A stretch of DNA of 32,000 bases from Gemmata obscuriglobus (lineage in GTDB: Bacteria > Planctomycetota > Planctomycetia > Gemmatales > Gemmataceae). Positions within the stretch are counted from its first letter, which is position 1; every line of letters starts with the position of its first letter. Below are positions 17,143 to 32,000 of this stretch, in pieces. The stretch lies in the NCBI RefSeq assembly GCF_008065095.1, contig NZ_CP042911.1, positions 8,967,202 through 8,999,201 on the forward strand. Direction: 5' to 3'. A program made the translations under genes and the position numbers. The notes under the pieces were generated by a model. It had not been told where the DNA came from, made no database searches, and saw nothing but the letters and a program-made list of their open reading frames with translations.

Positions 17143-19416
17143 TCAGTCGCCCAGCTCCCGGAAGATGCGATCGAACTGCGGGGCCGCCTGGAGGAACGCC
17201 TCGCGCAGCCCGGGGTCGAACTGGCCCTCCGATTTCTCGGTGATCACGAGCACCGCCGTGTGGTGTGACAGGGCGGGCTTGTACACGAGCCGGCTCCGCA
17301 TCGCGTCGTACACGTCCGCGAACGCCACCAGCCGGGCGACCAGCGGGATGCCCTCGCCCGACAGCCGGTCCGGGTACCCGCTCCCGTCCCAGCGCTCGTG
17401 GTGCCCCCGCGCGATGTCGATCGCCACGTGCAAGAAGCCGGTCGCGAACGGGTGCTGACGGGCCACCTCGCGGAGCGTGTCCGCCCCGATGGTGGTGTGG
17501 GCCTCCATCAGCGTGCGCTCGCCCTCGTCGAGCCGGCCGGGCTTGTTCAGGATGTGGTCCGGCAGCGCCGCCTTGCCGATGTCGTGGAGCGGCACCGCGT
17601 CCTCGAGCACCCGGATGAAGGTGGCGTCGATCTGGGGCGCGTAGGCGGGCAGGGCGGCGGCCCCCTCGGCGAGGGCGCGGCAGTACCGCTGGAGCCGCTG
17701 CAAGTGCCGGCCGCTCTCCGCGGACCGGTGCTCGACCAGCTTCGCGAGCGCGAGCACCAGCCCGTTGCGGGCGCGGAGCAACTCGCCGTCGCGGGCCTCA
17801 AGGGCCTGCTCCAGTTCGGCGTTGACGGTGAGCAGCTCGCGGTTCAGCACGTCCGCGCGGTCCTGTGCGTCCTTCAGGCGCAGCGCGGCCTTAACCCGGG
17901 CGCGGAGCTGCACCACGCTGAACGGCTTGGTGAGGAAGTCGTCGGCGCCGGCCAGCATGATGCGCGACAGCTCGTCGCCGCTGGCGGCCCCGGAGAACAT
18001 CACCACCTTCAGGTGCCGGGTGGGCTGGCGCTGGCGCAGCCGGCGCAACACCTCCTCGCCGCTGAACCCGGGCAGGTCCACGTCCAACAGGACCAAGTCG
18101 TAGGCCTTTTGACACGCCAGCGCGACCGCGTCCGGGCCGTTACCGACCTCCTCGCACTGGAGCCCCTCGGCCCCGAGCGCGACCCGACACAGCCGGCGGA
18201 TGTCTATCTGATCGTCGACGATAAGAACGCGCCCCGGCGAGGTGTGCGTGGTCGCGCACGGGCCGCTGTCCGCAGACGCCCGCGCGCCGCCGGGGGGTGG
18301 GGTGAGCGGCCCCTGCGCACGGGCGGGCAGAGCGCCCGCGCTCGCCGGGAGGAACGCGAGCAGCGCCCGCATCGCGGCCTCGGCCGTCGGGTACCGCTGC
18401 GCGGGCTCCGCGGCCATCATCCGGCTCACCACCGCGTCGAGCCCGGCGGGCACCTCGGGCCGCAACGCCCGGGCGCTGGGCGTGGGGCCGAACGCGGCCG
18501 TCACGCTCGAAAACGGGGCCTGGCCGGTGAGCGCGAAGTAGAGCGTGCAGCCGAGCCCGAAGACGTCGGCCCGGGCGTCCACGTCGTGCGCGTTGCGGGC
18601 CTGTTCGGGCGCCATGTACCCGACCGTGCCGAGCTGCGCGCCGGTGCGGGTGATGCGCTCCTCCCCGGGCAGCCGCGCGAGCCCGAAGTCGAGCAGCTTG
18701 GCCTGCCCGTCGGGCGTGACCAGCACGTTGGACGGCTTGATGTCGCGGTGGACGAGTTTCAGCCGGTGCGCTTCGATCAGCGCGTCGGCGATCTGGTGCG
18801 CGATCTGGCACGCGAACCCGACGGACAGCGGGGCCGCCGCGGCGACGCGCTCCAGGTCCGCCCCCGCGAGAAACTCCATCACGAAGTACGGCAGCGCCGG
18901 AACGTCCGGGCCGCGGGCCGGCTCCTCCCCGGCGTCGATCGCGGCGACGATGTTGGGGTGCTTGAGCTGCCCGACGGCGCGGGCCTCGAGAAAGAACCGC
19001 GCGAGCATCCGCGGGTTCACCTCCGGCGACGGCTGCAGCACCTTCACCGCGACGACCGTACGCAACTGCCGGTGCTCGGCGCGGTACACCACGCCCATGC
19101 CGCCGGTGCCGATCCGATCGAGTAACCGGTAGTTGCCGAGGGTGAGGCCGTGGAGACGGCCGGTGCGCACGCGGGCGGCCTGGAACTCGGTGAGCAGGCG
19201 GGTGCGAACGAGTTGATCGAGCAGGGCGGCGGCGGAGGGCGCGTGATCGACGGCGAACCGGTCCGCGGCGTCAAGCGCCTCGTAGCTCTCGTTCGCCACA
19301 ACCCCGCTGGCGAGCAGTTCGCGCAACAGGGCGGTCGGGTCGGTGTCTCGCATGGGGGGCAACAGCGCGGCAACCGAGCGCGGGAAGACGGAAGTACCCA
19401 CGGCTGACGACTCCAT
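17143..19416 (-). CDS. multidomain signalling protein: Hanks-type Ser/Thr kinase + response-regulator receiver + HD-GYP domain
   Basis: Single uninterrupted 757-aa ORF. Kinase, about aa 96-354 (nt 18355-19131): GTGGMGVVY, VAVKVL, HRDIKPSNVLV, DFGLAR, GTVGYMAPE. REC, about aa 396-512 (nt 17881-18231): VLIVDDQ, LVLLDVDLPG, FLTKPF. HD-GYP, about aa 551-745 (nt 17182-17766): PLHDIGK, HHERWDGSGYP. Confidence 0.9.
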   Translation of the reverse strand: MESSAVGTSVFPRSVAALLPPMRDTDPTALLRELLASGVVANESYEALDAADRFAVDHAPSAAALLDQLVRTRLLTEFQAARVRTGRLHGLTLGNYRLLDRIGTGGMGVVYRAEHRQLRTVVAVKVLQPSPEVNPRMLARFFLEARAVGQLKHPNIVAAIDAGEEPARGPDVPALPYFVMEFLAGADLERVAAAAPLSVGFACQIAHQIADALIEAHRLKLVHRDIKPSNVLVTPDGQAKLLDFGLARLPGEERITRTGAQLGTVGYMAPEQARNAHDVDARADVFGLGCTLYFALTGQAPFSSVTAAFGPTPSARALRPEVPAGLDAVVSRMMAAEPAQRYPTAEAAMRALLAFLPASAGALPARAQGPLTPPPGGARASADSGPCATTHTSPGRVLIVDDQIDIRRLCRVALGAEGLQCEEVGNGPDAVALACQKAYDLVLLDVDLPGFSGEEVLRRLRQRQPTRHLKVVMFSGAASGDELSRIMLAGADDFLTKPFSVVQLRARVKAALRLKDAQDRADVLNRELLTVNAELEQALEARDGELLRARNGLVLALAKLVEHRSAESGRHLQRLQRYCRALAEGAAALPAYAPQIDATFIRVLEDAVPLHDIGKAALPDHILNKPGRLDEGERTLMEAHTTIGADTLREVARQHPFATGFLHVAIDIARGHHERWDGSGYPDRLSGEGIPLVARLVAFADVYDAMRSRLVYKPALSHHTAVLVITEKSEGQFDPGLREAFLQAAPQFDRIFRELGD

Positions 19417-19680: not shown

Positions 19681-20370
19681 CTACCGCAACTTCAGTTGCT
19701 TGAAGAGGTCTTCGGTCCAGGTGCGGTGGGCGGACGAGAGCGGCACATCGGGCGGCGGCGGGCTCTTGTAATCAATTTGGCCGGCAAAGCTCCCGAGGTC
19801 GTAGGCACGACCGAAAGCGGCCTGCAAGTCGAGCAGCGCGTCGCGGTCGTCGGCCGCGAGCGGGAGCTTGAACTTCGGCAGCTTCTTCTGGAGCGTCGCG
19901 GTGTAAATCTCGTACCGGTCCGGGGCGTTCGAGCGTGTCACCGTGACCGCGTAGTCGTACTCCGGCAGACCGTCGCGCGAGTACGTGAGCAGCGGCTTAC
20001 CCTGTAACACAATGTCGATTTCGACAACCCCGGCCCGTTGCGCCAGGGCCTGCTGACGGGCGTGGAGGTACGCGGCGCGCCCGGCGGGGGTGGTTTTGTT
20101 CGCGGGGCACACCACTTCGAGCAGCGTCACCAGCTTGCCATCGGAGCGGTTGCGGATCTCAATGAACTCCTCCGCGAACTCCTCACGGACGATGGAAGTG
20201 AACAGCGGCATCTCGGAGGTGTAGGTGCGGGTGCCGACGCGGGCGCGGTAACGGTCCACAAGACCCGGGAGGAGAATTTGGTACAGGCACGCGAGGAGTT
20301 GGTGCTGGAACGCGGGCCAGAGTTTCGGCGTTTCGAGGTACGGGTCCATGCCAGGAAACGGGCTGGGCAT
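19681..20370 (-). CDS. DUF4058 family protein
   Basis: The N-terminus MPSPFPGMDPYLE...LWPAFQHQLL is the hallmark of DUF4058. The internal EEFIEI ... LLEVVCPANK pattern is also present. Confidence 0.85.
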   Translation of the reverse strand: MPSPFPGMDPYLETPKLWPAFQHQLLACLYQILLPGLVDRYRARVGTRTYTSEMPLFTSIVREEFAEEFIEIRNRSDGKLVTLLEVVCPANKTTPAGRAAYLHARQQALAQRAGVVEIDIVLQGKPLLTYSRDGLPEYDYAVTVTRSNAPDRYEIYTATLQKKLPKFKLPLAADDRDALLDLQAAFGRAYDLGSFAGQIDYKSPPPPDVPLSSAHRTWTEDLFKQLKLR

Positions 20371-23821: not shown

Positions 23822-24436
23822 TCACGGGAGCAAATCGGCGACGGGAATCGAGGTGACCGTCGTGCCGTCGAGAACGAGCGGAACCGCGTCGCCGGGTGTG
23901 TAGTTTTGCACAGAAGCGTAGGCCGGAGCGGCGCCCGGGCCGGACGGTTGCGTGTGAACCTCGACCCGGCGCTCTTCAAGATTGATGATCCAGTAGCAAG
24001 CGACATTCGCGCGGGCGTAAATGCGGGCCTTGTCGCGCTGGTCGCGGAGCAGCGACGCGTTCGCAACTTCGATCACCAGCGCCGTGTCATCCGGGGTCGG
24101 GTGTCGCGTCGTGTAATCGGCCGGGTCTTCGCGAACGACCGCGAAATCCGGCTCCGGGCGACTATCAGAAAGTGCCAGCGTGCCCTGTTCGCGGATATCC
24201 CATCCTGTCGGTAGCGCACGTGAGAGTCGCTTACGAATACGGAGTGCCGTGCCGTCGTGCGCAGGATTCTTGGGCATCTTGAGCACCACGTAGTTTTCAA
24301 GCAGTTCGACGTCGTCGTCCGGCGTAAAGATCCCCGCCCCAACCATGCGGTCGTACCGCTCGGTTGAGAACTTCGCGATCGACGCCTCGTTCAGGAACGT
24401 CGGCGTGAAAGGCGCGGCGGTCAGTACAGCGGACAT
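23822..24436 (-). CDS. Uma2-family (DUF820) putative PD-(D/E)XK endonuclease
   Basis: FSTERYDRMVGAGIF...ELLENYVVLKMP...PEPDFAVV...ALVIEVANASLLRDQRDKARIYARANVACYWIINL matches the Uma2 pattern. Confidence 0.85.
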   Translation of the reverse strand: MSAVLTAAPFTPTFLNEASIAKFSTERYDRMVGAGIFTPDDDVELLENYVVLKMPKNPAHDGTALRIRKRLSRALPTGWDIREQGTLALSDSRPEPDFAVVREDPADYTTRHPTPDDTALVIEVANASLLRDQRDKARIYARANVACYWIINLEERRVEVHTQPSGPGAAPAYASVQNYTPGDAVPLVLDGTTVTSIPVADLLP

Positions 24437-24509: not shown

Positions 24510-25931
24510 TTACGCCACGGGCATCGGGTCGGCGTGGTAGAGGTGGTGCGGGCGGTTCTCCGCGTCGTGCCACGCCGCCGTCTTCGGCAACCCCAGTGCG
24601 CTATAAATGGTCGCCGCGAAGTTTTCCGGCGTCTGCGGATCGGTCGCCGGGAAGCCGCCGTTCTTGTCCGATGAGCCCACCACGCGCCCTCCGCTCACTC
24701 CGCCGCCCGCGAGCAGAACCGACTGCACCGCGCCCCAATGGTCACGACCCGGCCCCTTGTAGTGTTGCGTCAAGGTGCTGACGCGCGGGGTGCGCCCGAA
24801 CTCGCCCGCCACCACGACCAGCGTTGAACCGAGCAACCCGCGCTGGTCGAGGTCGGCAATCAGGGCGGACAGCGAGCGATCCGTCGGCGGGAGCAATTTG
24901 TCTTTCAGGTGCGGAAACGCGTTCCCGTGCGTGTCCCAGGTCTCGTTGTTGCCCAGGTTCACCTGAACCAGATTCACCCCGGCTTCGACGAGGCGCGCGG
25001 CCATCAGCAACGACCAGCCGAACGCGTTGTTGCCGTACCGCTCCACGTCCCGCGGGTCCGCCCGCTTCAGATCAAACGCCGCCCGCACCCGGGCGTCGGT
25101 GAGCAGGCTCACGGCGTCGGCGCGCGAGCGGTCGAGCGCGCCCGTGCTGGCGGCCTCGGCTAACGTCTTGCGCTGCCTGTCGAGGTGGGCCAGTACGTCG
25201 AGCCGGTCCGCGAACCGTTCCGCCCCGATCCCCTGCGGCAGGCTCAGGTCGGGCAGAGTAAACCCCTTACGCACAGGCTGAAACGGCCGCTGCTGGTGGT
25301 CGAACTCGTACTCGGGGTACGCACCGTACGCCTTCGGCTCGAACGCGCTGGCTTCGAGGAACCACGGGTCGCGGGCGCGTCCCATGACGCCCGCGAACTG
25401 CCCCGGGATCACCCGACCGGCGTTGTGAACGATCTTGTCCGGCAGCACGAGGGCGGGCGGCAGGTTGTTCCGCGCCCGCGTGACCGCACCGGCGATCGCG
25501 GCGAGGCTCGGGTGATCGGTGGGCTGCGGCTTGCTCGGGTTGAAGCCGACCGGCGCGTCCGAGCGGCCGGTGAGCATGATATGGTGCCCCAGCGAGTGGT
25601 CGTTCGACTTGTGCGTCAGCGAGCGCACGACGCACCACTTGTCCGAGCACGCGGCGAGCTTCGGCAGGTGTTCGGTGACGCGCAGCCCGGGGGTCTTCGT
25701 CGCGGTGGTGCCGAACTCGCCGCGGATCGAATCCGGGGCGTTCGGCTTCGGGTCGAAGCTCTCGTGCTGCGCGAGCCCGCCGGAAAGGAACACGTAAATG
25801 ACCGCCCGCGCCCGCGGGCTCGGTTCCGCGCGGAGCGCACTCAACGGCGACATTCCGAGGCCGAGCAGGCCGACGGCGCCGGCCTGGATCGCGTCGCGGC
25901 GCGTGAGGTGAGGATGGGTGAACGGGGACAT
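24510..25931 (-). CDS. DUF1501 domain protein (sulfatase-like fold) with Tat signal
   Basis: Twin-arginine leader HLTRRDAIQAGAVGLLGLG. Also IYVFLSGGLAQHESFDPKP, VVVAGEFGRTPRV and GRDHW, all typical of DUF1501. Confidence 0.9.
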   Translation of the reverse strand: MSPFTHPHLTRRDAIQAGAVGLLGLGMSPLSALRAEPSPRARAVIYVFLSGGLAQHESFDPKPNAPDSIRGEFGTTATKTPGLRVTEHLPKLAACSDKWCVVRSLTHKSNDHSLGHHIMLTGRSDAPVGFNPSKPQPTDHPSLAAIAGAVTRARNNLPPALVLPDKIVHNAGRVIPGQFAGVMGRARDPWFLEASAFEPKAYGAYPEYEFDHQQRPFQPVRKGFTLPDLSLPQGIGAERFADRLDVLAHLDRQRKTLAEAASTGALDRSRADAVSLLTDARVRAAFDLKRADPRDVERYGNNAFGWSLLMAARLVEAGVNLVQVNLGNNETWDTHGNAFPHLKDKLLPPTDRSLSALIADLDQRGLLGSTLVVVAGEFGRTPRVSTLTQHYKGPGRDHWGAVQSVLLAGGGVSGGRVVGSSDKNGGFPATDPQTPENFAATIYSALGLPKTAAWHDAENRPHHLYHADPMPVA

Positions 25932-26269: not shown

Positions 26270-27100
26270 ATGATACGCATCTCCTCTCCGCGGTTACGGT
26301 CCGCCGGCCGGTTCCTGTGTGCGGCGGCACTGGCACTGGTCGTCACGGCGATGTTCGCGCAACTGGCCCAGGCCCAGGACGCCCCGACGCCGGCGAGCGG
26401 CAAGGAGCAGACCGGCACCGGCCTCATCGTGTTCATGCTCGAGTCTCTCGGGTTCGTGTTCGGCATACCGCTGCTACTCATCTCCCTCGCCATGCTCGCG
26501 CTGGTGGTGCTCCTGTTCCTCGACCTCCGCATGGGCTCCGCCATCCCCCCGGGGTTCGTCGACGAGTTCACCGACATTGTGAACAAGCGCAAATTCAAAG
26601 AGGCATTTGAAATGGCGCGGAACGACCCGTCGTTCCTCGGCCAGGTGCTGACCGCCGGCATGAGCCGCCTCCAGTACGGCCTCGAGGACGCCCGCGAGGC
26701 CGCGATGAACACGCTGGAAAGCATCAAGAGCGACAAGGAGATGAAGAACAACTACAACTCGGTGATCGCGACCGTCGGCCCGATGCTCGGGCTGGTGGGC
26801 ACGGTGTGGGGGATGATCCGGTCGTTCTCCGTGCTCGCGACCGCGACCCAGGTGAACCCCTCGGAGTTGGCCAAGGGCATCTCGCACGCCCTCGTGGTGA
26901 CGCTGTTCGGGGTCGCCATCTCGGTGCCCGCGATCTTCTTCAACGCGTTCTACCGGAACCGCATCACTCGCGTAACGATGGACGTGGGCCACATCGCCGA
27001 CGACCTGCTCACGCAGATGTACCACAACTCGAAGAAGGCCGCGGCCCCGCCGCCCGCGACCCCGGCGCCCGCCAACGGCGCCCCCCCGGCGGCGCGCTAG
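26270..27100 (+). CDS. exbB: MotA/TolQ/ExbB proton-channel family protein
   Basis: ATG at 26270. N-terminal signal-like segment RFLCAAALALVVTAMFAQLAQA. Conserved C-terminal core GPMLGLVGTVWGMIRSF...ISHALVVTLFGVAISVPAIFFNAFYRNR. Confidence 0.9.
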   Translation: MIRISSPRLRSAGRFLCAAALALVVTAMFAQLAQAQDAPTPASGKEQTGTGLIVFMLESLGFVFGIPLLLISLAMLALVVLLFLDLRMGSAIPPGFVDEFTDIVNKRKFKEAFEMARNDPSFLGQVLTAGMSRLQYGLEDAREAAMNTLESIKSDKEMKNNYNSVIATVGPMLGLVGTVWGMIRSFSVLATATQVNPSELAKGISHALVVTLFGVAISVPAIFFNAFYRNRITRVTMDVGHIADDLLTQMYHNSKKAAAPPPATPAPANGAPPAAR

Positions 27101-27187: not shown

Positions 27188-27667
27188 ATGAGCCACGGCA
27201 GCAGCGACAAGTGCGAACCGAACTTCACCCCGCTGCTCGACCTCGTGTTGCAGCTCGTGATGTTCTTCATGCTGTGCGCCAACTTCGTCATGGACCAGAC
27301 GAACGTGGACATCAAGCTCCCGCTGGCAACGACCGCCAGGGCGATCGAAGCGACCGAGCCTTACGTGCTTTACCTGAACGTGAACGAAAAGGGGCAGGTG
27401 ATCTACCCGCCGGGCGCGCTGGGCAAGGACGGCGAGTCGTCCGACAACCCGGTCCAGCTCGCGATCTGGCTGAAGCGCCGGGCCGACGAGGACCGGCTCA
27501 TTGCCGGCCCCGGTAACGAGGACAAGCCGCTCCGCACGCTCATCGTGCTGCGGGTTCATAAGGCGTGCCCGTTCGAGAAAACGTACCCGGTCATGAAGGC
27601 GTGCCGCTCCGCGGGGTACCAGCGGGTTCAGTTGCGAGCCATCCTCGCCGGAAGCGGTCCGGGCTGA
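27188..27667 (+). CDS. exbD: ExbD/TolR-family biopolymer transport protein (paralog 1)
   Basis: ATG at 27188. The N-terminal motif and TM EPNFTPLLDLVLQLVMFFML is followed by a periplasmic domain (LYLNVNEKGQV...LIVLRVHKACPFEKTYPVMKACRSAGY). Confidence 0.85.
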   Translation: MSHGSSDKCEPNFTPLLDLVLQLVMFFMLCANFVMDQTNVDIKLPLATTARAIEATEPYVLYLNVNEKGQVIYPPGALGKDGESSDNPVQLAIWLKRRADEDRLIAGPGNEDKPLRTLIVLRVHKACPFEKTYPVMKACRSAGYQRVQLRAILAGSGPG

Positions 27668-27763: not shown

Positions 27764-28291
27764 ATGTTGAGGCACACACGCAAGCGCACCGGCACCGATT
27801 TCGTCGAGCCGGAGCTGCCGATCACGCCCATGCTGGACATGTCGTTCCAGTTACTGGCGTTCTTTATCCTGACGTTCAAGCCGGCCCCGACCGAGGGCCA
27901 GATCATGCTCTCGCTGCCGAAGGAGGACGGCGGGGGACAGGGCGCCCCGAGCCCGGCCGTGGCCGACGCCCCGGTCCATTACATCGTCCGCGTGCTCGCC
28001 ACCGACGACGGCGACATCGGACAAATGACCCTCAGTCAGGAGGGCAGCGCCGCCGAGCCCAAAGAGCTGAAATCCGGGCTCCACAAGCGCCCGGACGGGT
28101 CGGACATGTCCATGCTCGAGGTGTACCAGAAGGAACTTAGCGACCGGGAGCCGCAGAAGCAGCCGATGAAGCTGACGCTCGAACTCCCGCCGCGGCTGTC
28201 GCAGGACAACGTCGTTCGCCTCGTGGACACCGGAACCAGCGCCGGGTTCACCGACATTTCGCCCGTGCCCATCGACAAAAAGAACCGGTAA
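27764..28291 (+). CDS. exbD: ExbD/TolR-family biopolymer transport protein (paralog 2)
   Basis: ATG at 27764. [22 protein letters not shown], with C-terminal [27 protein letters not shown]. Confidence 0.85.
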
Positions 28292-28520: not shown

Positions 28521-30059
28521 ATGTCCGCCGGGACCGTGGGAACCGTACCGCTGAAACTCAAGGCCGCCGCGCTCCTCGCGCTCGCGGCGCTGTTCGGCTT
28601 CGCGCCCGGTCCGTTCTCGGCGGTAGACTTCGCGAGCGCCCAGCCCACTAACAACTCAAACACGAGCGGCCAGACCAAGGGGGACGGCGAAAAAGAAACG
28701 CCCAGTGAGGCGGACCTCGACCGGCGCGACCCGGTGCCGGCCGACTCGCCGCGCCGCAAGGGATACGACAAGCTCCGCATCCCAGACACCGACCGCACAA
28801 TCTTCACCGAAATTGTGGACTTCAAACCGGTCGCGGCTCAGGACAAGAACCCGCGCGAGTACGACGCCTGGATCGAGTACGTCCTTCACGCGCGAAAGCA
28901 GAACGCCCGCGACCTCAACGAGCACGGCATCCGCGACCTGGTCCCGCTCGAGTTCGCCAAATTCCCCCGCGCGTACCGAACCGAGCTGATCCGGTTCGAC
29001 GGCAAGCTGAGTTGCGTCCGCCGGTTGGTGCCCCCGCCGCAGTTGCGCAGCTCCGGTGTGAAGGATCTGTACGAAGCCCGCCTCGTGCCGCTCGACGAAT
29101 CGCCGGCCACGCCGGTGTCGGTCGTGTTCACCGACCTGCCGGAGTCGCTCGCCGCGGTGAGCGGCAAGGCGCCCGAGGAGTGGCTCGACGCCGACGGGTG
29201 GGTCACCGCCACCGGGTACTTCTTCAAGACCATGAGCGTCGCGGGCGAACAGGGCAGCGCGGTTGTGAACCTGCCGCTCCTCATCGGGAAGGGGCTCACC
29301 CCGCTCCCCGGGCCGCCCCCGGGAAGCCCGACCCCGACCGCGCTGGACAAGAGCCTGCGGCTCTACAAGTTCATTCAAGACGACGTGAAGATGACCCGCA
29401 CCCGGCCGACCGCGGCCACGTGGCCCGAGGTCGCCGCGTACAACCGGGTCGTGCTGCACGCGGCCCGGTTCTCCGCGGAGGAACTGGAGCGCGACGCGGT
29501 CACCGACGTGCGGTTCGCGGACCTGTTCGAGGAGCCGCGCATCGGGCACCGGCTGTCGCTCGTCAAATTCGAGGGCCGGCTGATTTCGCTGCGGCGCATG
29601 GACTCGAACGACTGGCTCGGCGCCGCCGGCGTGAACCAGCTTTTCGAGGGCTGGCTGATCCCCGATCACGAGCCGCGCGGGAACCCGGTGTGCGTCGTGT
29701 TCAGCGAGCCGCTCGAGGGTGTTGACCCGGCCCGGCGCGTTAACAAGTGGGTGACGTTCGCGGGCTACTCGTTCAAGCGCATGCGGTACGAGTCCGCCGA
29801 GGAGGACGCCAAGAACCCGTCGAAGCACATCGACAAACTCGCCCCGTTACTGATCGGGAAGAGGCCGATCGGGCGCCGCGACCCCGACCACGCGACGCCC
29901 GTGACGTGGAACGCGTTCGCCGAGGGGGCCATCATCGGCGCGGCGCTTTTAATCTTGTGCGCGGGGGTGTTTGCCCTCTGGTACCGCCGCGGCGACCGAC
30001 AGGCCCGGGCGGAAATGGACGCGGTGCGGGGCCGAAATCCGTTCGACCCGGCAGCGTAA
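28521..30059 (+). CDS. hypothetical bitopic membrane protein with an internally duplicated ~145-aa module
   Basis: ATG at 28521 with GGAGG at 28510-28514. N-terminal signal/anchor LKLKAAALLALAALFGF. C-terminal TM AIIGAALLILCAGVFALWY plus a basic tail. Modules at about aa 113-257 and 302-448 share VLHA, R..L..F.G.L...RR, PV.VVF, WVT..GY.FK.M and PLLIGK. No known family recognised. Confidence 0.7.
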   Translation: MSAGTVGTVPLKLKAAALLALAALFGFAPGPFSAVDFASAQPTNNSNTSGQTKGDGEKETPSEADLDRRDPVPADSPRRKGYDKLRIPDTDRTIFTEIVDFKPVAAQDKNPREYDAWIEYVLHARKQNARDLNEHGIRDLVPLEFAKFPRAYRTELIRFDGKLSCVRRLVPPPQLRSSGVKDLYEARLVPLDESPATPVSVVFTDLPESLAAVSGKAPEEWLDADGWVTATGYFFKTMSVAGEQGSAVVNLPLLIGKGLTPLPGPPPGSPTPTALDKSLRLYKFIQDDVKMTRTRPTAATWPEVAAYNRVVLHAARFSAEELERDAVTDVRFADLFEEPRIGHRLSLVKFEGRLISLRRMDSNDWLGAAGVNQLFEGWLIPDHEPRGNPVCVVFSEPLEGVDPARRVNKWVTFAGYSFKRMRYESAEEDAKNPSKHIDKLAPLLIGKRPIGRRDPDHATPVTWNAFAEGAIIGAALLILCAGVFALWYRRGDRQARAEMDAVRGRNPFDPAA

Positions 30060-30174: not shown

Positions 30175-31794
30175 GTGAGCGAGAAAAAAGTCAAAGAGCC
30201 GAAGGAGGCGGTGATCCGTCGGGTGGAGTTCGCTGAGGAGACCGCTCAGGAGCGGTTCCTGATGAAGTACGTACCGGCGTGCCTCATGAGCGGCGCGATC
30301 CACGCCGGCGTGCTCGGGCTGGCGATCCTGTTCTTCGGCTTCCGAACCGCCGAAACCAAGCAGCCGGACAAGCCGCTCACCACCACCGCCGAGAAGTCGG
30401 ACGAACCCGAGCAGCTGAACCTCACCACCGACGACCTCGGTGTGGACTCCAAAATCGAATCGGCGCTGCCCGAGATCGATCGGCTCGACACGAAGACGGT
30501 CGACGAAAAGGTCACGATGGACAACATCGGCCAGCCGACCGTTCAGGACAACGACCTCCAGGGCGCGACGCTCCCGGGCATCTCGGACATCCGCGAGTTC
30601 ACCACCCCGGGCGTGGCCGGTGACACCGGCTCGTTCATGACGGGCGGCGGCGGCAACGCCGGGGTCGGCAACGCGATGGTCCAGGGCCGGTCGGGGGCGA
30701 CCAAATCGCGCCTGCTGCGCGAGGGCGGCGGCAACGCGGAGAGCGAGCGCGCCGTGGGGTTGGGGCTGGCGTGGCTGGCCAAGCAGCAAAAGGCGGACGG
30801 CGGGTGGACCTACGACCAGGGCCGCAAGGAGGAGCGCGCCGCCGCCACCGGGATGGCGCTGCTGCCGTTCCTCGCGGCCGGCGTGACCCACAAGAAAAGT
30901 AAGGAGCACGAGCAGAAGAACTACGACCAGGTGGTTCAAAAGGGGTTGGGGTTCCTGATGAAGCTGTGCTCCCCGAGCGGGGCCAGCGCCGGGCGCATGA
31001 GCACCGACGTGTACGCCCAGGGCATCGCCACTATCGCCCTGTGCGAGGCGTACGGAATGACCAAGGACCCGGCCCTCAGGCCGTACGCGCAGGCGTCCAT
31101 CAACTTCATCCAGCGCACCCAGGGGCCGAACGGGAGCTGGGGGTACGGCAACACCGGCAACGGCGACACCTCGATCGTCGGCTGGCAGATCCAGGCGCTC
31201 AAAGCCGCGAAGCTGAGCAAGGAACTGGTGGTCGACGACCGGGTGATCCAGAAGGCCGAGAAGTTCCTCGACCTGGCCGCGGCCGGCTCGCGGAAATCGA
31301 TGTACGGGTACGCCGACAACTCCGACGCCCAACCGGGCACCGCGCGGACCGCGGTCGGCCTGCTGTGCCGGTATTACATCTCGGGATGGGGACCGAACAA
31401 GGACGGCATGATCGACGGCGTCAGCGGGCTGATGAAAGTGGCTCCCCTCTCATCGGCCACCGGAAAGCCGCCCGCTGTTAAAGAGATGTACTACTACTAT
31501 TACGCGACTCAAGTCGTCCACTTCTGCGAGGGTGACGACTGGAAAACGTGGAACGAAGGGCCGAGACAAGCCGACGGCACCCGTAAAGGCGGCATGCGCG
31601 ACTGGCTCGTTCAAACCCAGATCCGGGCCGACACGAACGCGGGGAGTTGGGACATCGAAGACGGCTGGATCGGCCGCGGGTGCGGGCGTCTGGGCACGAC
31701 CTGTATGTGCCTCCTGACGCTCGAGGTCTACTACCGCCACTTGCCGCTCTACAAGCGCGGCGCCGACGGTAAGGCGATCCAAATCATCGATTAG
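30175..31794 (+). CDS. TonB/TolA-like N-terminal anchor fused to a prenyltransferase/squalene-oxidase-repeat (alpha/alpha toroid) domain
   Basis: GTG at 30175 with GAGGAG at 30162-30167; the track ORF start at 29971 overlaps the upstream gene. The TM helix ACLMSGAIHAGVLGLAILFF contains SxxxH (S39, H43). A ~130-aa acidic/Gly-rich linker follows. The C-terminal region has AVGLGLAWLAKQQKADGGW, INFIQRTQGPNGSWGY and DTSIVGWQIQALKAA, repeats typical of terpene-cyclase-like toroids. Confidence 0.8.
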   Translation: MSEKKVKEPKEAVIRRVEFAEETAQERFLMKYVPACLMSGAIHAGVLGLAILFFGFRTAETKQPDKPLTTTAEKSDEPEQLNLTTDDLGVDSKIESALPEIDRLDTKTVDEKVTMDNIGQPTVQDNDLQGATLPGISDIREFTTPGVAGDTGSFMTGGGGNAGVGNAMVQGRSGATKSRLLREGGGNAESERAVGLGLAWLAKQQKADGGWTYDQGRKEERAAATGMALLPFLAAGVTHKKSKEHEQKNYDQVVQKGLGFLMKLCSPSGASAGRMSTDVYAQGIATIALCEAYGMTKDPALRPYAQASINFIQRTQGPNGSWGYGNTGNGDTSIVGWQIQALKAAKLSKELVVDDRVIQKAEKFLDLAAAGSRKSMYGYADNSDAQPGTARTAVGLLCRYYISGWGPNKDGMIDGVSGLMKVAPLSSATGKPPAVKEMYYYYYATQVVHFCEGDDWKTWNEGPRQADGTRKGGMRDWLVQTQIRADTNAGSWDIEDGWIGRGCGRLGTTCMCLLTLEVYYRHLPLYKRGADGKAIQIID

Positions 31795-31816: not shown

Positions 31817-31868
31817 GCGACGCGTGGTGCCGTTTGTGCGCAAACGGCACCACGCGTCGCTGCTTTTT
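31817..31868 (+). terminator. rho-independent terminator
   Basis: Perfect 20-bp stem: gcgacgcgtggtgccgtttg at 31817-31836 pairs with caaacggcaccacgcgtcgc at 31841-31860. The loop is tgcg, and TTTTT follows at 31864-31868. It begins 23 nt after the stop at 31794. Confidence 0.75.
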
Positions 31869-32000
31869 AGCCAGATGCGGTCGTTTCTGCCCTCGCTGCC
31901 ACCTCACATCTTATGGCACATAATCCATTATTTCTTAACGACTTACGACTAAGCTATTGGGCTTTACCGGCAACTCAAAAGTGGGTAAAATACTGACTCA

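Follow-up and report, generated by a model that had tools for sequence, protein, structure and literature searches.

A toroid-headed protein with a TonB/TolA-like membrane anchor, encoded with ExbB and ExbD in Gemmata obscuriglobus, as a candidate periplasmic force transducer

Energy transducers were long thought to exist in two forms, TonB and TolA, until a vWA-headed class was added in 2025. A 2012 survey detected neither TonB nor a TonB-dependent receptor in Gemmata obscuriglobus, and the 32,000-nucleotide stretch of its genome analyzed here (contig NZ_CP042911.1, hereafter the window) raises the question of whether a protein with a TonB/TolA-like anchor helix and an unrelated C-terminal domain could serve as a transducer in this organism. 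An earlier note, made from sequence alone, had read this protein as an energy transducer with a new effector domain. All those of its proposed checks that can be computed support that reading, while coupling to a motor is itself an inference. On balance, the evidence tips modestly toward a periplasmic force transducer of the TonB/TolA class with a new C-terminal domain, in which docking, force transmission and the load are all inferred. The toroid would then be the second non-canonical head, and our literature search found no description of a toroid-headed transducer. Table 1 collects the features of the locus.

Table 1. Features of the toroid-protein operon, in window coordinates.
Feature	Position	Strand	Basis or remark
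ExbB/TolQ-type proton-channel subunit, 276 aa, signal-like N-terminal extension	26270..27100	+	First operon gene; Pfam MotA_ExbB E 8.8e-24
ExbD/TolR paralogue 1 (ExbD1), 159 aa, TM aspartate D18 (TPLLDLV)	27188..27667	+	Pfam ExbD E 1.6e-16
ExbD/TolR paralogue 2, 175 aa, TM aspartate D25 (TPMLDMS)	27764..28291	+	Pfam ExbD E 4.3e-9
X512, partner gene, 512 aa	28521..30059	+	Signal peptide, two repeats, C-terminal TM helix
TonB/TolA-like anchored protein with alpha/alpha-toroid head (toroid protein), GTG start	30175..31794	+	539 aa; main finding
Cytoplasmic N-terminus, aa 1-34 (AVIRRxExxEETxQERLxKKxVP)	30175..30276	+	Conserved in alignment; predicted helical
Single TM helix, aa 35-56, with S39 (30289-30291) and H43 (30301-30303)	30277..30342	+	Proposed ExbB TM1 docking site
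Disordered linker, aa 57-184, acidic, Gly/Thr-rich	30343..30726	+	pLDDT < 50, composition, conserved columns
Candidate D-box/motor-box strand, P67-LTTTAE-K74	30373..30396	+	Alignments; pattern only
Alpha/alpha(6) toroid domain, aa 185-527, QW-like repeats	30727..31755	+	AF2, Foldseek, Pfam, family conservation
GDTSIVGW motif, aa 330-337, degenerate class II terpene-cyclase acid motif	31162..31185	+	Structural alignment; only D331 kept
Intrinsic terminator closing the operon	31817..31860	+	20-bp stem, 14 G-C pairs, then TTTTT

The reading depends first on where the protein starts and on which side of the membrane its domains lie. Homologues start MSEK... and conserve the 34 residues preceding the helix, so GTG 30175 is assigned as the start codon. 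The downstream ATG at 30262 (MKYVP...), which the earlier note had named as a possible objection, is ruled out by conservation among homologues of the 29 residues upstream of it, and the N-in topology stands. Only one hydrophobic segment is present, ACLMSGAIHAGVLGLAILFFGF at aa 35-56; for the cytoplasmic N-terminus, AF2 places a helix at aa 24-37 with low confidence. A single transmembrane helix with a cytoplasmic N-terminus and most of the chain in the periplasm is the likely arrangement, although this topology is inferred without measurement. In many paralogues the same toroid follows a cleavable signal peptide, from which it can be concluded that the toroid is an exported domain; a cytoplasmic C-terminal domain, which would have refuted the earlier reading, is not borne out.

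Inspection of the helix reveals the feature on which that reading was built. The E. coli TonB helix is PWPTLLSVCIHGAVVAGLLYTS, and comparison with it and with the TolA motif confirms the quotation made earlier: S39 (codon agc) and H43 (codon cac) hold in position, spacing and helix context. TonB S16/H20 and TolA S18/H22 contact ExbB/TolQ, where cryo-EM identifies the Ser and His as a contact hub with TM1. Across an alignment of 26 sequences, P34, A35, S39 and G40 never vary, and residue 43 is His in 22 and Asn in 4, with no other alternative. The check on conservation of the Ser and His therefore held, the Ser being invariant and the His swapped for Asn only. Asn has been reported as a full substitute for His20 of E. 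coli TonB (title of Swayne & Postle 2011), and genes with SxxxN are likewise located in ExbBD operons (L035, L045, L063). The remainder of the SHLS motif is not retained: position 50 (the Leu place, H+7) is A, L or M, and position 54 (the Ser place, H+11) is F, L or G, with no conserved Ser. That is to say, the first half of SHLS (Ser-x3-His) is kept and the second half (Leu, final Ser) is not, and this loss counts against the transducer reading.

The half that remains occurs far above chance in the helices of the toroid family. Sxxx[HN] lies within a hydrophobic helix in 116 of 120 close homologues of the toroid protein, in 115 of 120 Pirellulales-type relatives, and in 81 of the best 150 representatives of clusters at 50% identity, against a background of 6 in 506 hydrophobic 21-mers (1.2%) taken from neighboring genes. 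Most homologues and representatives without the motif are signal-peptide proteins or fragments, and among full-length anchored relatives, Pirellulales included, ~96% carry SxxxH or SxxxN. The family itself is very large: 10,520 clusters at 50% identity match the domain, and the anchor is present in over half of the 150 best.

The genes surrounding the anchor provide evidence that the earlier note did not contain. Five genes on one strand, separated by gaps of 87-229 bp, form an operon in the order ExbB, ExbD, ExbD, X512 and toroid gene, and within it the + strand presents a single weak terminator-like match (28399) ahead of the strong final terminator. The motor looks intact at the sequence level: neither ExbD has lost its TM aspartate, and ExbB retains its Thr and Pro residues as well as the TM1 Ser. 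The window ExbB aligns to the structures of E. coli ExbB and TolQ with the Thr of GTVWG, the TM3 Thr and the Pro retained. The TM1 Ser, equivalent to ExbB S34 and TolQ S28, is kept in nearly all ExbB orthologues and is Ala in L063; among the few SxxxN operons for which ExbB is available, one has Ala at this position and one retains Ser. Weighing against the proposed docking, the orthologues do not conserve the equivalent of ExbB Trp38, a TonB contact in E. coli. The two ExbD paralogues likely form a heterodimeric plug, an arrangement that is inferred. A Zorya-like or other MotAB-motor defense system was also considered and set aside, as none of the five operon proteins has a PADLOC match.

Synteny was assessed in loci of Gemmatales having 4 kb or more of upstream sequence, comprising 46 SxxxH/N-anchored genes and 7 signal-peptide paralogues. 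ExbB/ExbD lie upstream of 37 of the 46 anchored genes and of none of the 7 signal-peptide paralogues (Fisher p = 7e-5), and X512 sits directly 5' of the toroid gene in 41 of the 46 anchored loci. The five-gene order is preserved in relatives at 48% and 41% identity. The surroundings of the operon are less constant: the DUF1501 gene upstream is conserved in close relatives only, and downstream in Gemmata algarum lie genes of the dnaN/gyrB region, whose linkage to the operon is not conserved. The conserved operon with ExbB/ExbD makes it probable that the toroid protein is an energy coupler of a kind not yet described. Against this stand the Pirellulales-type members, which keep SxxxH yet are not adjacent to exbBD, and five Gemmatales paralogues that are orphans without the operon; for both groups, coupling in trans is an assumption.

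Between helix and toroid lies a linker of 128 aa (22 D+E, 16 G, 24 S+T; pLDDT < 50), as the earlier claim of an acidic, Gly-rich linker of ~130 aa had it. AF2 pLDDT and composition together meet the expectation of a non-globular, periplasm-spanning linker for transducers of the TonB/TolA class. Conserved motifs within it include NLTxEDxG, ALPEIER, TVD..VT.D..GQP and GRSGATK. Near its beginning, 11-18 residues past the helix, is a candidate D-box strand with prolines on both sides and a nearly invariant T70. All lineages show an alternating hydrophobic/polar motif 10-20 residues past the helix, often flanked by proline, as in RTMLTFTPP of relatives versus PISVTMVTP of E. coli. The D-box definition was taken from PMC10907165 and the assignment rests on a loose pattern only, with LTTTAE of the window a weak example, and this is a further reservation about the transducer reading. 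A more direct link to the motor is found in P0125, a protein from a 135-kb Planctomycetota contig in which two ExbD-like periplasmic domains are fused to the same linker motif and a toroid. Its ExbD-like part shares 33% identity with ExbD1 (E 8e-16), and the natural fusion marks a likely interaction surface. A metagenome scan returned no further ExbD-toroid fusions, so that this evidence rests on one protein. Together, the operon context, the candidate D-box-like strand and the fusion are the strongest support for the transducer reading.

We then turn to the head itself. The earlier note had described a domain of roughly 350 aa with prenyltransferase/squalene-oxidase-type repeats rather than a TonB C-terminal domain. 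This held: AF2 predicts the 343-aa C-terminal domain to be a 12-helix alpha/alpha toroid (pLDDT 72-96 in most 10-residue blocks, falling to 53-67 in four), and neither Pfam nor NCBIfam matches TonB_C or TolA-III in the protein. The structure prediction and Foldseek search confirm the toroid, and the weak matches to class II terpene cyclases, GH76, epimerases and complement TED bear out the claim that the fold is common to terpene cyclases and thioester domains. Profile scores remain below threshold, with Pfam SQHop_cyclase_C (PF13243) at E 1.1e-5 and 25.1 bits against a gathering cut-off of 26.1, TIGR01507 at 20.5 against a cut-off of 431, and TED_complement under cut-off at E 0.0086. The N-terminal 185 aa gave nothing in Pfam at E <= 10, and no VWA domain was matched, the C-terminal domain having the toroid fold. 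Databases label such proteins terpene cyclase/mutase or prenyltransferase/squalene oxidase repeat because of the alpha/alpha(6) barrel, the QW-like repeats and the alignment of GDTSIVGW to the acid motif.

That alignment pairs GDTSIVGW with G-D108-[D109]-A-T-T-G-W of MstE and E-D-A-D-S-T-G-W of 6ij1. The check for a catalytic Asp-rich motif versus a binding scaffold found no DxDD (or VxDCTAE) in the toroid protein, GDTS standing in its place with the first Asp (D331) alone kept. D331 is present in 136 of 139 relatives (98%), and none of the 139 has Asp at position 332 or 333. The toroid protein thus resembles class II terpene cyclases (squalene-hopene cyclase; the single-domain MstE; 6ij1, 8pak, 8paj) in its alpha/alpha(6) barrel, QW-like repeats and aligning acid-motif segment, and differs in being an exported single domain in which the general-acid Asp is Thr or Ser family-wide. 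A true terpene cyclase or prenyltransferase is ruled out by the sub-cut-off scores, the single exported domain and the family-wide degenerate acid motif. The earlier exclusion of a sterol or hopene cyclase likewise held, since a single 343-aa toroid lacks the beta-gamma two-domain architecture. With TED domains of alpha-2-macroglobulin and complement, the toroid shares fold class, extracytoplasmic location and use as a binding or capture module; in contrast, it lacks CGEQ/CxEQ and is not embedded in macroglobulin domains. The missing CxEQ rules out a thioester domain. The loss of the acid motif, the absence of a thioester motif, and the use of the toroid as the periplasmic module of an ECF-sigma/TM protein (P0244) point to a binding head more than a cyclase. 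A non-enzymatic binding module is the likely identity of the head, inferred without ligand or activity data.

A rival explanation takes the protein for a periplasmic enzyme held at the membrane and related in type to terpenoid cyclases, glycan hydrolases, lyases or epimerases, for which the helix is a mere anchor and the motor genes are incidental or serve to position the enzyme. In its favor, enzymes predominate in the fold family, with class II cyclases, GH76 and epimerases heading the Foldseek list, and the acid-motif region is recognizably homologous with its D331 conserved. The toroid mouth is strongly conserved (D331, R505, Y280, Y439, Y442/443, T225, T509), which is equally compatible with an enzyme and tempers the transducer reading; E291, D298, R399, R505 and conserved Tyr/Trp residues could make an active site. 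Other family members are moreover fused to FGE-sulfatase or 3-keto-disaccharide-hydrolase domains. Against it, the general-acid positions are never Asp and DxDD is absent, and a plain anchor would not be expected to retain the Ser, the His/Asn and an upstream P-A-W throughout the depth of the family when the motif background is 1.2%. The signal-peptide paralogues, equally usable as enzymes, are never in the operon, and the ExbD-toroid fusion and D-box-like strand suggest a physical link to the motor. We regard the enzyme reading as unlikely.

A sensor or regulator is similarly improbable. Under this explanation, the toroid would bind a periplasmic signal and the SxxxH helix would gate the ExbBD channel or relay to the cytoplasmic N-terminus. 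Support comes from the toroid of P0244, from a 34-residue cytoplasmic N-terminus unusually conserved for a TonB-like protein, and from the cryo-EM work, whose authors propose signaling from the Ser/His hub to ExbB Pro190. In contrast, long linkers without order and D-box-like strands typify pulling devices and not sensors, the cytoplasmic part contains no output domain, and the operon contains no regulator gene.

The force-transducer reading can be stated as a sequence of putative steps. Co-transcribed ExbB and two distinct ExbD proteins would form a proton-driven motor of 5:2 type in the cytoplasmic membrane, and the N-in helix would dock outside the ExbB ring via S39 and H43 in the manner of TonB and TolA. 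As with the D-box of TonB, the periplasmic domains of ExbD may capture the beta-prone strand at ~aa 67-74, such that the motor would pull on the acidic linker and hence on the toroid. The head, in turn, would grip an unidentified periplasmic or outer-membrane ligand with its mouth, whose polar and aromatic residues are conserved. Docking has neither experimental nor structural evidence behind it, and AF2 confidence is low for helix and linker.

The co-conserved X512 is probably either an adaptor or the load of the transducer, a role that is inferred. It carries a signal peptide (ASA|QP), a TM helix at ~aa 463-485 and, in the cytoplasm, a tail that ends in RGRNPF, and alignment A2 reveals two tandem repeats, each a helical bundle with an OB-like beta-barrel. 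No match was found in Pfam (including E <= 10), NCBIfam or PADLOC, and the AF2 model (pLDDT 81) gives only weak OB-fold matches in Foldseek and no function. Its 159 homologues have Gemmata, Frigoriglobus and Gemmataceae as named sources.

Two further explanations concern the load. In the first, the protein is a Tol-like envelope tether, a TolA analogue that joins the cytoplasmic membrane with the wall or the outer membrane. Its toroid would bind peptidoglycan, glycan or a lipoprotein of the outer membrane, in the service of division or a stable envelope and not of import. One survey gives Planctomycetes as its example of a phylum with reduced envelope systems (Lpt/Tol-Pal), giant relatives combine TolB-type PD40 propeller repeats and toroids with an internal SxxxH helix, and toroid folds commonly bind glycans. 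Against the tether, no pal, tolB or cpoB-like gene lies within or near the operon; as a variant of the transducer reading that differs in load alone, it is not discriminated by the present data, and we hold it to be unlikely in this specific form. In the second and bolder explanation, also doubtful, the SxxxH proteins with a toroid head stand in for the missing TonB of Planctomycetes, and proton-motive energy delivered by the ExbBD-toroid machine drives the uptake of whole macromolecules such as dextran and GFP through the outer membrane. In that case the toroid would hold on to a glycan, a lipid-linked molecule or some part of the crateriform complexes of the outer membrane, and not to a Ton box. 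No outer-membrane partner was found at the locus. Uptake of dextran and GFP by Gemmata is abolished by CCCP.

The toroid family occurs in a phylum for which TonB and its receptors have mostly gone undetected, though Gemmata takes up macromolecules across the outer membrane in this uncoupler-sensitive manner. The operon is therefore a genetically testable candidate for the role of ExbB/ExbD there.

Returning to the force-transducer reading, the protein can be set beside known systems. With TonB it shares an N-in TM helix with Ser-x3-His, a post-helix beta-prone strand (pattern only in the toroid protein), a long non-globular periplasmic linker, linkage to exbB/exbD and tolerance of Asn at the His position. 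The toroid protein differs in its head, where TonB has a ~90-aa TonB_C that pairs with Ton boxes, in an acidic, Gly/Thr-rich linker versus the Pro-rich one of TonB, in the missing final Ser of SHLS, in a longer conserved cytoplasmic N-terminus, and in a host genus reported to lack TonB-dependent receptors. The resemblance to TolA extends to the helix motif (ISAVLHV vs ISGAVHV), the three-part architecture and the TolQ/TolR-type motor, whereas domain III and the alpha-helical domain II are absent from the protein, and tolB, pal and cpoB from the locus. The closest published case is that of the vWA-headed transducers (Williams-Jones et al. 2025, PMC12204202), SHLS-anchored proteins known beside tolQ and two tolR in the PVC group, with the class extending to other phyla, in a paper that does not mention a toroid head. 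Their operons differ in that the toroid locus has no TPR gene and encodes an extra membrane protein with two OB-like domains, and a toroid replaces the vWA head. Both have an SHLS-type helix (its first half only in the toroid protein), a motor box (by pattern only in the toroid protein), a linker of ~100 residues and a globular head other than that of TonB, and the function of the vWA class is itself unknown.

Comparative evidence tips the balance toward reading the toroid protein, in which a single SxxxH-bearing helix anchors an α/α-toroid head, as a transducer of the TonB/TolA class. Its gene lies in planctomycete sequence (65.8% G+C across the window), and at this locus Gemmata algarum JC673 shares 96% protein-level identity with the window. 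That the plus strand is coding is shown by its codon usage (GC3 = 0.87) and by over a thousand homologues. These homologues begin MSEK and conserve the 34 residues ahead of the hydrophobic segment, and the start is therefore the GTG at 30175. Conservation upstream of the hydrophobic segment rules out the ATG at 30262 as an alternative. Inspection of the AlphaFold2 model reveals an unstructured linker (pLDDT < 50) followed by a 12-helix α/α toroid at aa 185-527, with most 10-residue blocks at 72-96 and four at 53-67. The earlier note had described this ORF, its SxxxH helix, linker and toroid domain, and that observation held in every detail.

Features of the toroid protein, its operon and nearby genes
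Feature	Position	Strand	Remarks
Ser/Thr protein kinase, response-regulator receiver and HD-GYP-like HD_5 in one chain	17143-19416	-	757 aa
DUF4058 gene	19681-20370	-	
Uma2-family putative endonuclease gene	23822-24436	-	
DUF1501 gene	24510-25931	-	divergent from exbB
ExbB/TolQ homologue	26270-27100	+	upstream of toroid gene
ExbD1, ExbD/TolR homologue	27188-27667	+	TM aspartate D18
ExbD2, ExbD/TolR homologue	27764-28291	+	differs from ExbD1; TM aspartate D25
X512, family unknown	28521-30059	+	512 aa; upstream of toroid gene
Toroid gene	30175-31794 (stop)	+	GTG start; 539 aa
Toroid protein N-terminus	aa 1-34		conserved, cytoplasmic
TM helix, single	aa 35-56		ACLMSGAIHAGVLGLAILFFGF; S39 = 30289-30291, H43 = 30301-30303
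Linker	128 residues		22 acidic, 16 Gly, 24 Ser/Thr
C-terminal domain	343 residues		followed by a short tail
Terminator	31817-31860		20-bp stem, 3' of toroid gene
AT-rich stretch	31870-32000		past operon terminator; promoter-like matches at 31896 and 31963

The anchor motif is far commoner in the family than chance would give. Across 26 aligned homologues (56-83% identity), P34, A35, S39 and G40 are invariant, and position 43 holds His in 22 sequences and Asn in the other 4, this being the sole substitution seen at the motif His. The check proposed in the earlier note, invariance of S and H among homologues, is thus met by Ser, while His is held except for Asn replacements. Among the 120 closest database clusters, 82 carry SxxxH and 34 SxxxN in a hydrophobic helix, the remaining 4 being either fragmentary or of the signal-peptide type. 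When 1.84 billion cluster representatives were scanned without a profile, the toroid domain turned up in 10,520 proteins, the best 150 of which (33-76% identity) include 75 with SxxxH and 6 with SxxxN in a hydrophobic helix; most proteins without the motif are fragments or begin with an ordinary signal peptide. The motif typically stands in the context P-[AS]-W-x-x-S-x-x-x-H, and SxxxH is kept in 115/120 of a Pirellulales-type subfamily (~40% identity). The background rate is 1.2% (6 occurrences in 506 hydrophobic 21-mers, taken from 427 further proteins encoded at the same loci). In cryo-EM structures, S16/H20 of TonB and S18/H22 of TolA form the contact hub with ExbB/TolQ TM1, and Asn can reportedly stand in fully for His20 of E. 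coli TonB (Swayne & Postle 2011, by title, cited in PMC8928145).

The toroid gene closes an ExbB-ExbD-ExbD-X512-toroid series with intergenic gaps of 87-229 bp. The window ExbB retains the pore threonines, the TM3 proline and the TM1 serine, the last being a TonB contact in E. coli, and lacks the counterpart of Trp38. From these key residues we infer that the motor looks functional. In two operons with SxxxN transducers, the conserved ExbB TM1 Ser is Ala in one (L063) and retained in the other (L045), too few cases for a covariation call. The DUF1501 gene probably lies outside the system, since few loci, all Gemmata-type (L001, L003, L041), keep it in this position; matches occur in 9/80 loci overall.

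To place the operon among relatives, 80 loci from GTDB species genomes (Gemmata, Frigoriglobus, Fimbriiglobus, Limnoglobus, Urbifossiella and others) were compared, counting only toroid genes with ≥ 4 kb of upstream sequence. ExbB/ExbD lie upstream of 37 of 46 anchored (SxxxH/N) toroid genes, all 37 loci also having X512, while 4 anchored genes have only X512 as a neighbour and 5 are orphans. All 7 paralogues with cleavable signal peptides are orphans, with neither ExbB/ExbD nor X512 (Fisher p = 7e-5 for the difference in ExbB/ExbD linkage). Three operon toroid genes that fell below the hydrophobicity filter are SxxxN or SxxxH forms. Relatives of 48% and 41% identity in a JGI metagenome show the order MotA_ExbB, ExbD, ExbD, unknown, toroid gene, the unknown protein having 293 or 347 aa. 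Pirellulales-type toroid genes stand alone and adjoin rpmG/recJ, often as tandem pairs, and no exbB or exbD was found near the SxxxH-anchored examples in L082, L083 and L084. E. coli tonB is likewise unlinked to exbBD. Tandem SxxxH-anchored genes occupy 8001-11466 in L082 and 8001-11410 in L083 and also occur in L084; in L081 and L082 such genes adjoin a divergent rpmG-recJ pair. The Gemmatales-type operon or gene also appears on contigs of MAGs labelled Alcaligenaceae, Sandaracinobacter or Bacteroidales (L060, L064, L065, L068, L072), which most likely reflects mis-binning and not occurrence outside Planctomycetota.

In TonB and TolA, a short strand just past the helix forms the D-box or motor box; that of E. 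coli, QPISVTMVTPAD, alternates hydrophobic and polar residues between flanking prolines and is captured by the ExbD dimer. Every toroid-family lineage has a comparable element 10-20 residues past the helix, followed by an acidic stretch (for example KIVATSVEKEE, LAIVVEEPE, RTVLTVANPS and RTMLTFTPPP). The window protein has it as P67-LTTTAE-K74, in which T70 hardly ever varies. The element is possibly a D-box counterpart, a pattern match and not a proof. A relative of 705 aa, P0125, is encoded on a 135-kb contig from a Planctomycetota MAG and departs from this layout at its N-terminus: in place of the helix it has a lipoprotein signal together with two periplasmic domains that resemble ExbD. 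The first of these domains matches window ExbD1 (33% identity, E 8e-16), and the shared linker motif LPEIERVD and the toroid follow. Such a fusion would be expected if the linker-toroid protein ordinarily works in contact with the periplasmic domains of ExbD; a metagenome scan yielded no second ExbD-toroid fusion.

The exported head resembles known toroids only weakly. Foldseek against the PDB returns matches at E about 1e-4 (TM 0.5-0.6 by target) to single-domain class II terpene cyclases (8pak, 8paj, MstE, 6ij1), GH76 mannanases, cellobiose epimerases and complement TED domains. In sequence profiles, the most conserved family segment, G-D331-T-S-I-V-G-W, aligns with the class II cyclase acid motif (MstE G-D108-D109-A-T-T-G-W; 6ij1 E-D-A-D-S-T-G-W), where MstE D109 is the catalytic residue mutated in 6sbd. 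Only the first Asp of that motif survives: D331 is present in 136/139 diverse relatives, which have Thr or a hydrophobic residue at 332 and Ser at 333, never Asp. DxDD and CxEQ are absent from the whole protein, and scores for Pfam and NCBIfam cyclase families fall under their cut-offs. On this sequence evidence, cyclase chemistry has been lost, and the database names 'terpene cyclase/mutase family' and 'prenyltransferase/squalene oxidase repeat-containing' are misleading. A rival explanation, that the protein is a tethered enzyme, is unlikely; we read the toroid as a binding head, without excluding an unconventional enzyme. Polar residues invariant across the family (T225, Y280, D331, S333, Y439, Y442/443, R505, T509) lie at the N-terminal ends of six alternate helices, which we read in the AlphaFold2 model as the inner ones. 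Model and conservation together therefore suggest that they line one barrel mouth. This mouth is where toroids of this fold usually bind their ligands, and such a site fits one that is polar or amphipathic.

Elsewhere, the toroid domain occurs behind signal peptides and after FGE-sulfatase or DUF1080 domains. Giant relatives of 1370-1900 aa (P0155, P0160, P0161, P0167, P0172, P0176, P0179, P0199) match the toroid domain at two separate places and also carry SxxxH in a hydrophobic helix inside the chain, e.g. KCIIASLMLHLF; most of them start with a TM helix. Pfam identifies TolB-type PD40 propeller repeats in P0155, P0160 and P0172, the three that were scanned. In P0244 (661 aa), a TM segment connects regions 2 and 4 of an ECF sigma factor with a toroid in the periplasm, which raises the possibility that the toroid can act as a ligand-sensing module. 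A second rival, that the toroid protein is a sensor gating the motor, is considered improbable.

A signal peptide opens the partner X512; two tandem repeats follow, in each of which a helical bundle is paired with an OB-like barrel, and past a C-terminal TM helix the protein closes with a conserved cytoplasmic tail (RGRNPF). It is an internal duplication of a ~170-aa module and matches no known family. Its 159 homologues are, where the source is named, all from Gemmataceae/Planctomycetes, with single-repeat forms (~300-350 aa) in Fimbriiglobus, Limnoglobus and more distant operons. X512 stays beside the toroid gene even without exbBD upstream, and is a plausible candidate for the adaptor or load of the transducer. 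A third rival, a Tol-like tether, differs from the transducer reading in load only and is also thought unlikely.

Under the transducer reading, proton flow through ExbB5-ExbD1/ExbD2 would drive the motor, S39/H43 would dock the toroid protein on ExbB, and the post-helix strand would be held by ExbD periplasmic domains. The motor would then pull the linker and hence whatever the toroid head holds; docking, force transmission and ligand are all inferred. What the analysis itself shows is the architecture, the conservation of the motif, the operon, the export of the head and the loss of cyclase chemistry. The protein would work like TonB and TolA, yet it stands outside both families: it lacks the TonB_C and TolA-III domains and does not keep the second half of their SHLS. 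The nearest published concept is a vWA-headed transducer class, whose genes in the PVC group adjoin one tolQ-like and two distinct tolR-like genes (PMC12204202). A toroid head is not mentioned there, and no description of a toroid-headed transducer was found in the literature searched. What is new is the α/α-toroid head, the transducer class itself being already known. The earlier note's finding is genuine, and comparative evidence gives its reading, an energy transducer with a new effector domain, good support.

A 2012 survey found neither TonB nor a TonB-dependent receptor in Gemmata obscuriglobus, yet in Gemmata GFP and 10-40 kDa dextran enter the periplasm by an uptake that is sensitive to CCCP. 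The ExbBD-toroid operon may be a concrete candidate energy coupler for this uptake, with no evidence linking the two. Past the operon, the next genes in Gemmata algarum (L001 9876-15302) are AAA+/DnaA-like, dnaN, a small DUF721-like gene and gyrB, judged from N-terminal sequences only. Given these dnaN/gyrB-like neighbours and the AT-rich stretch, the operon possibly lies beside a replication-origin region.
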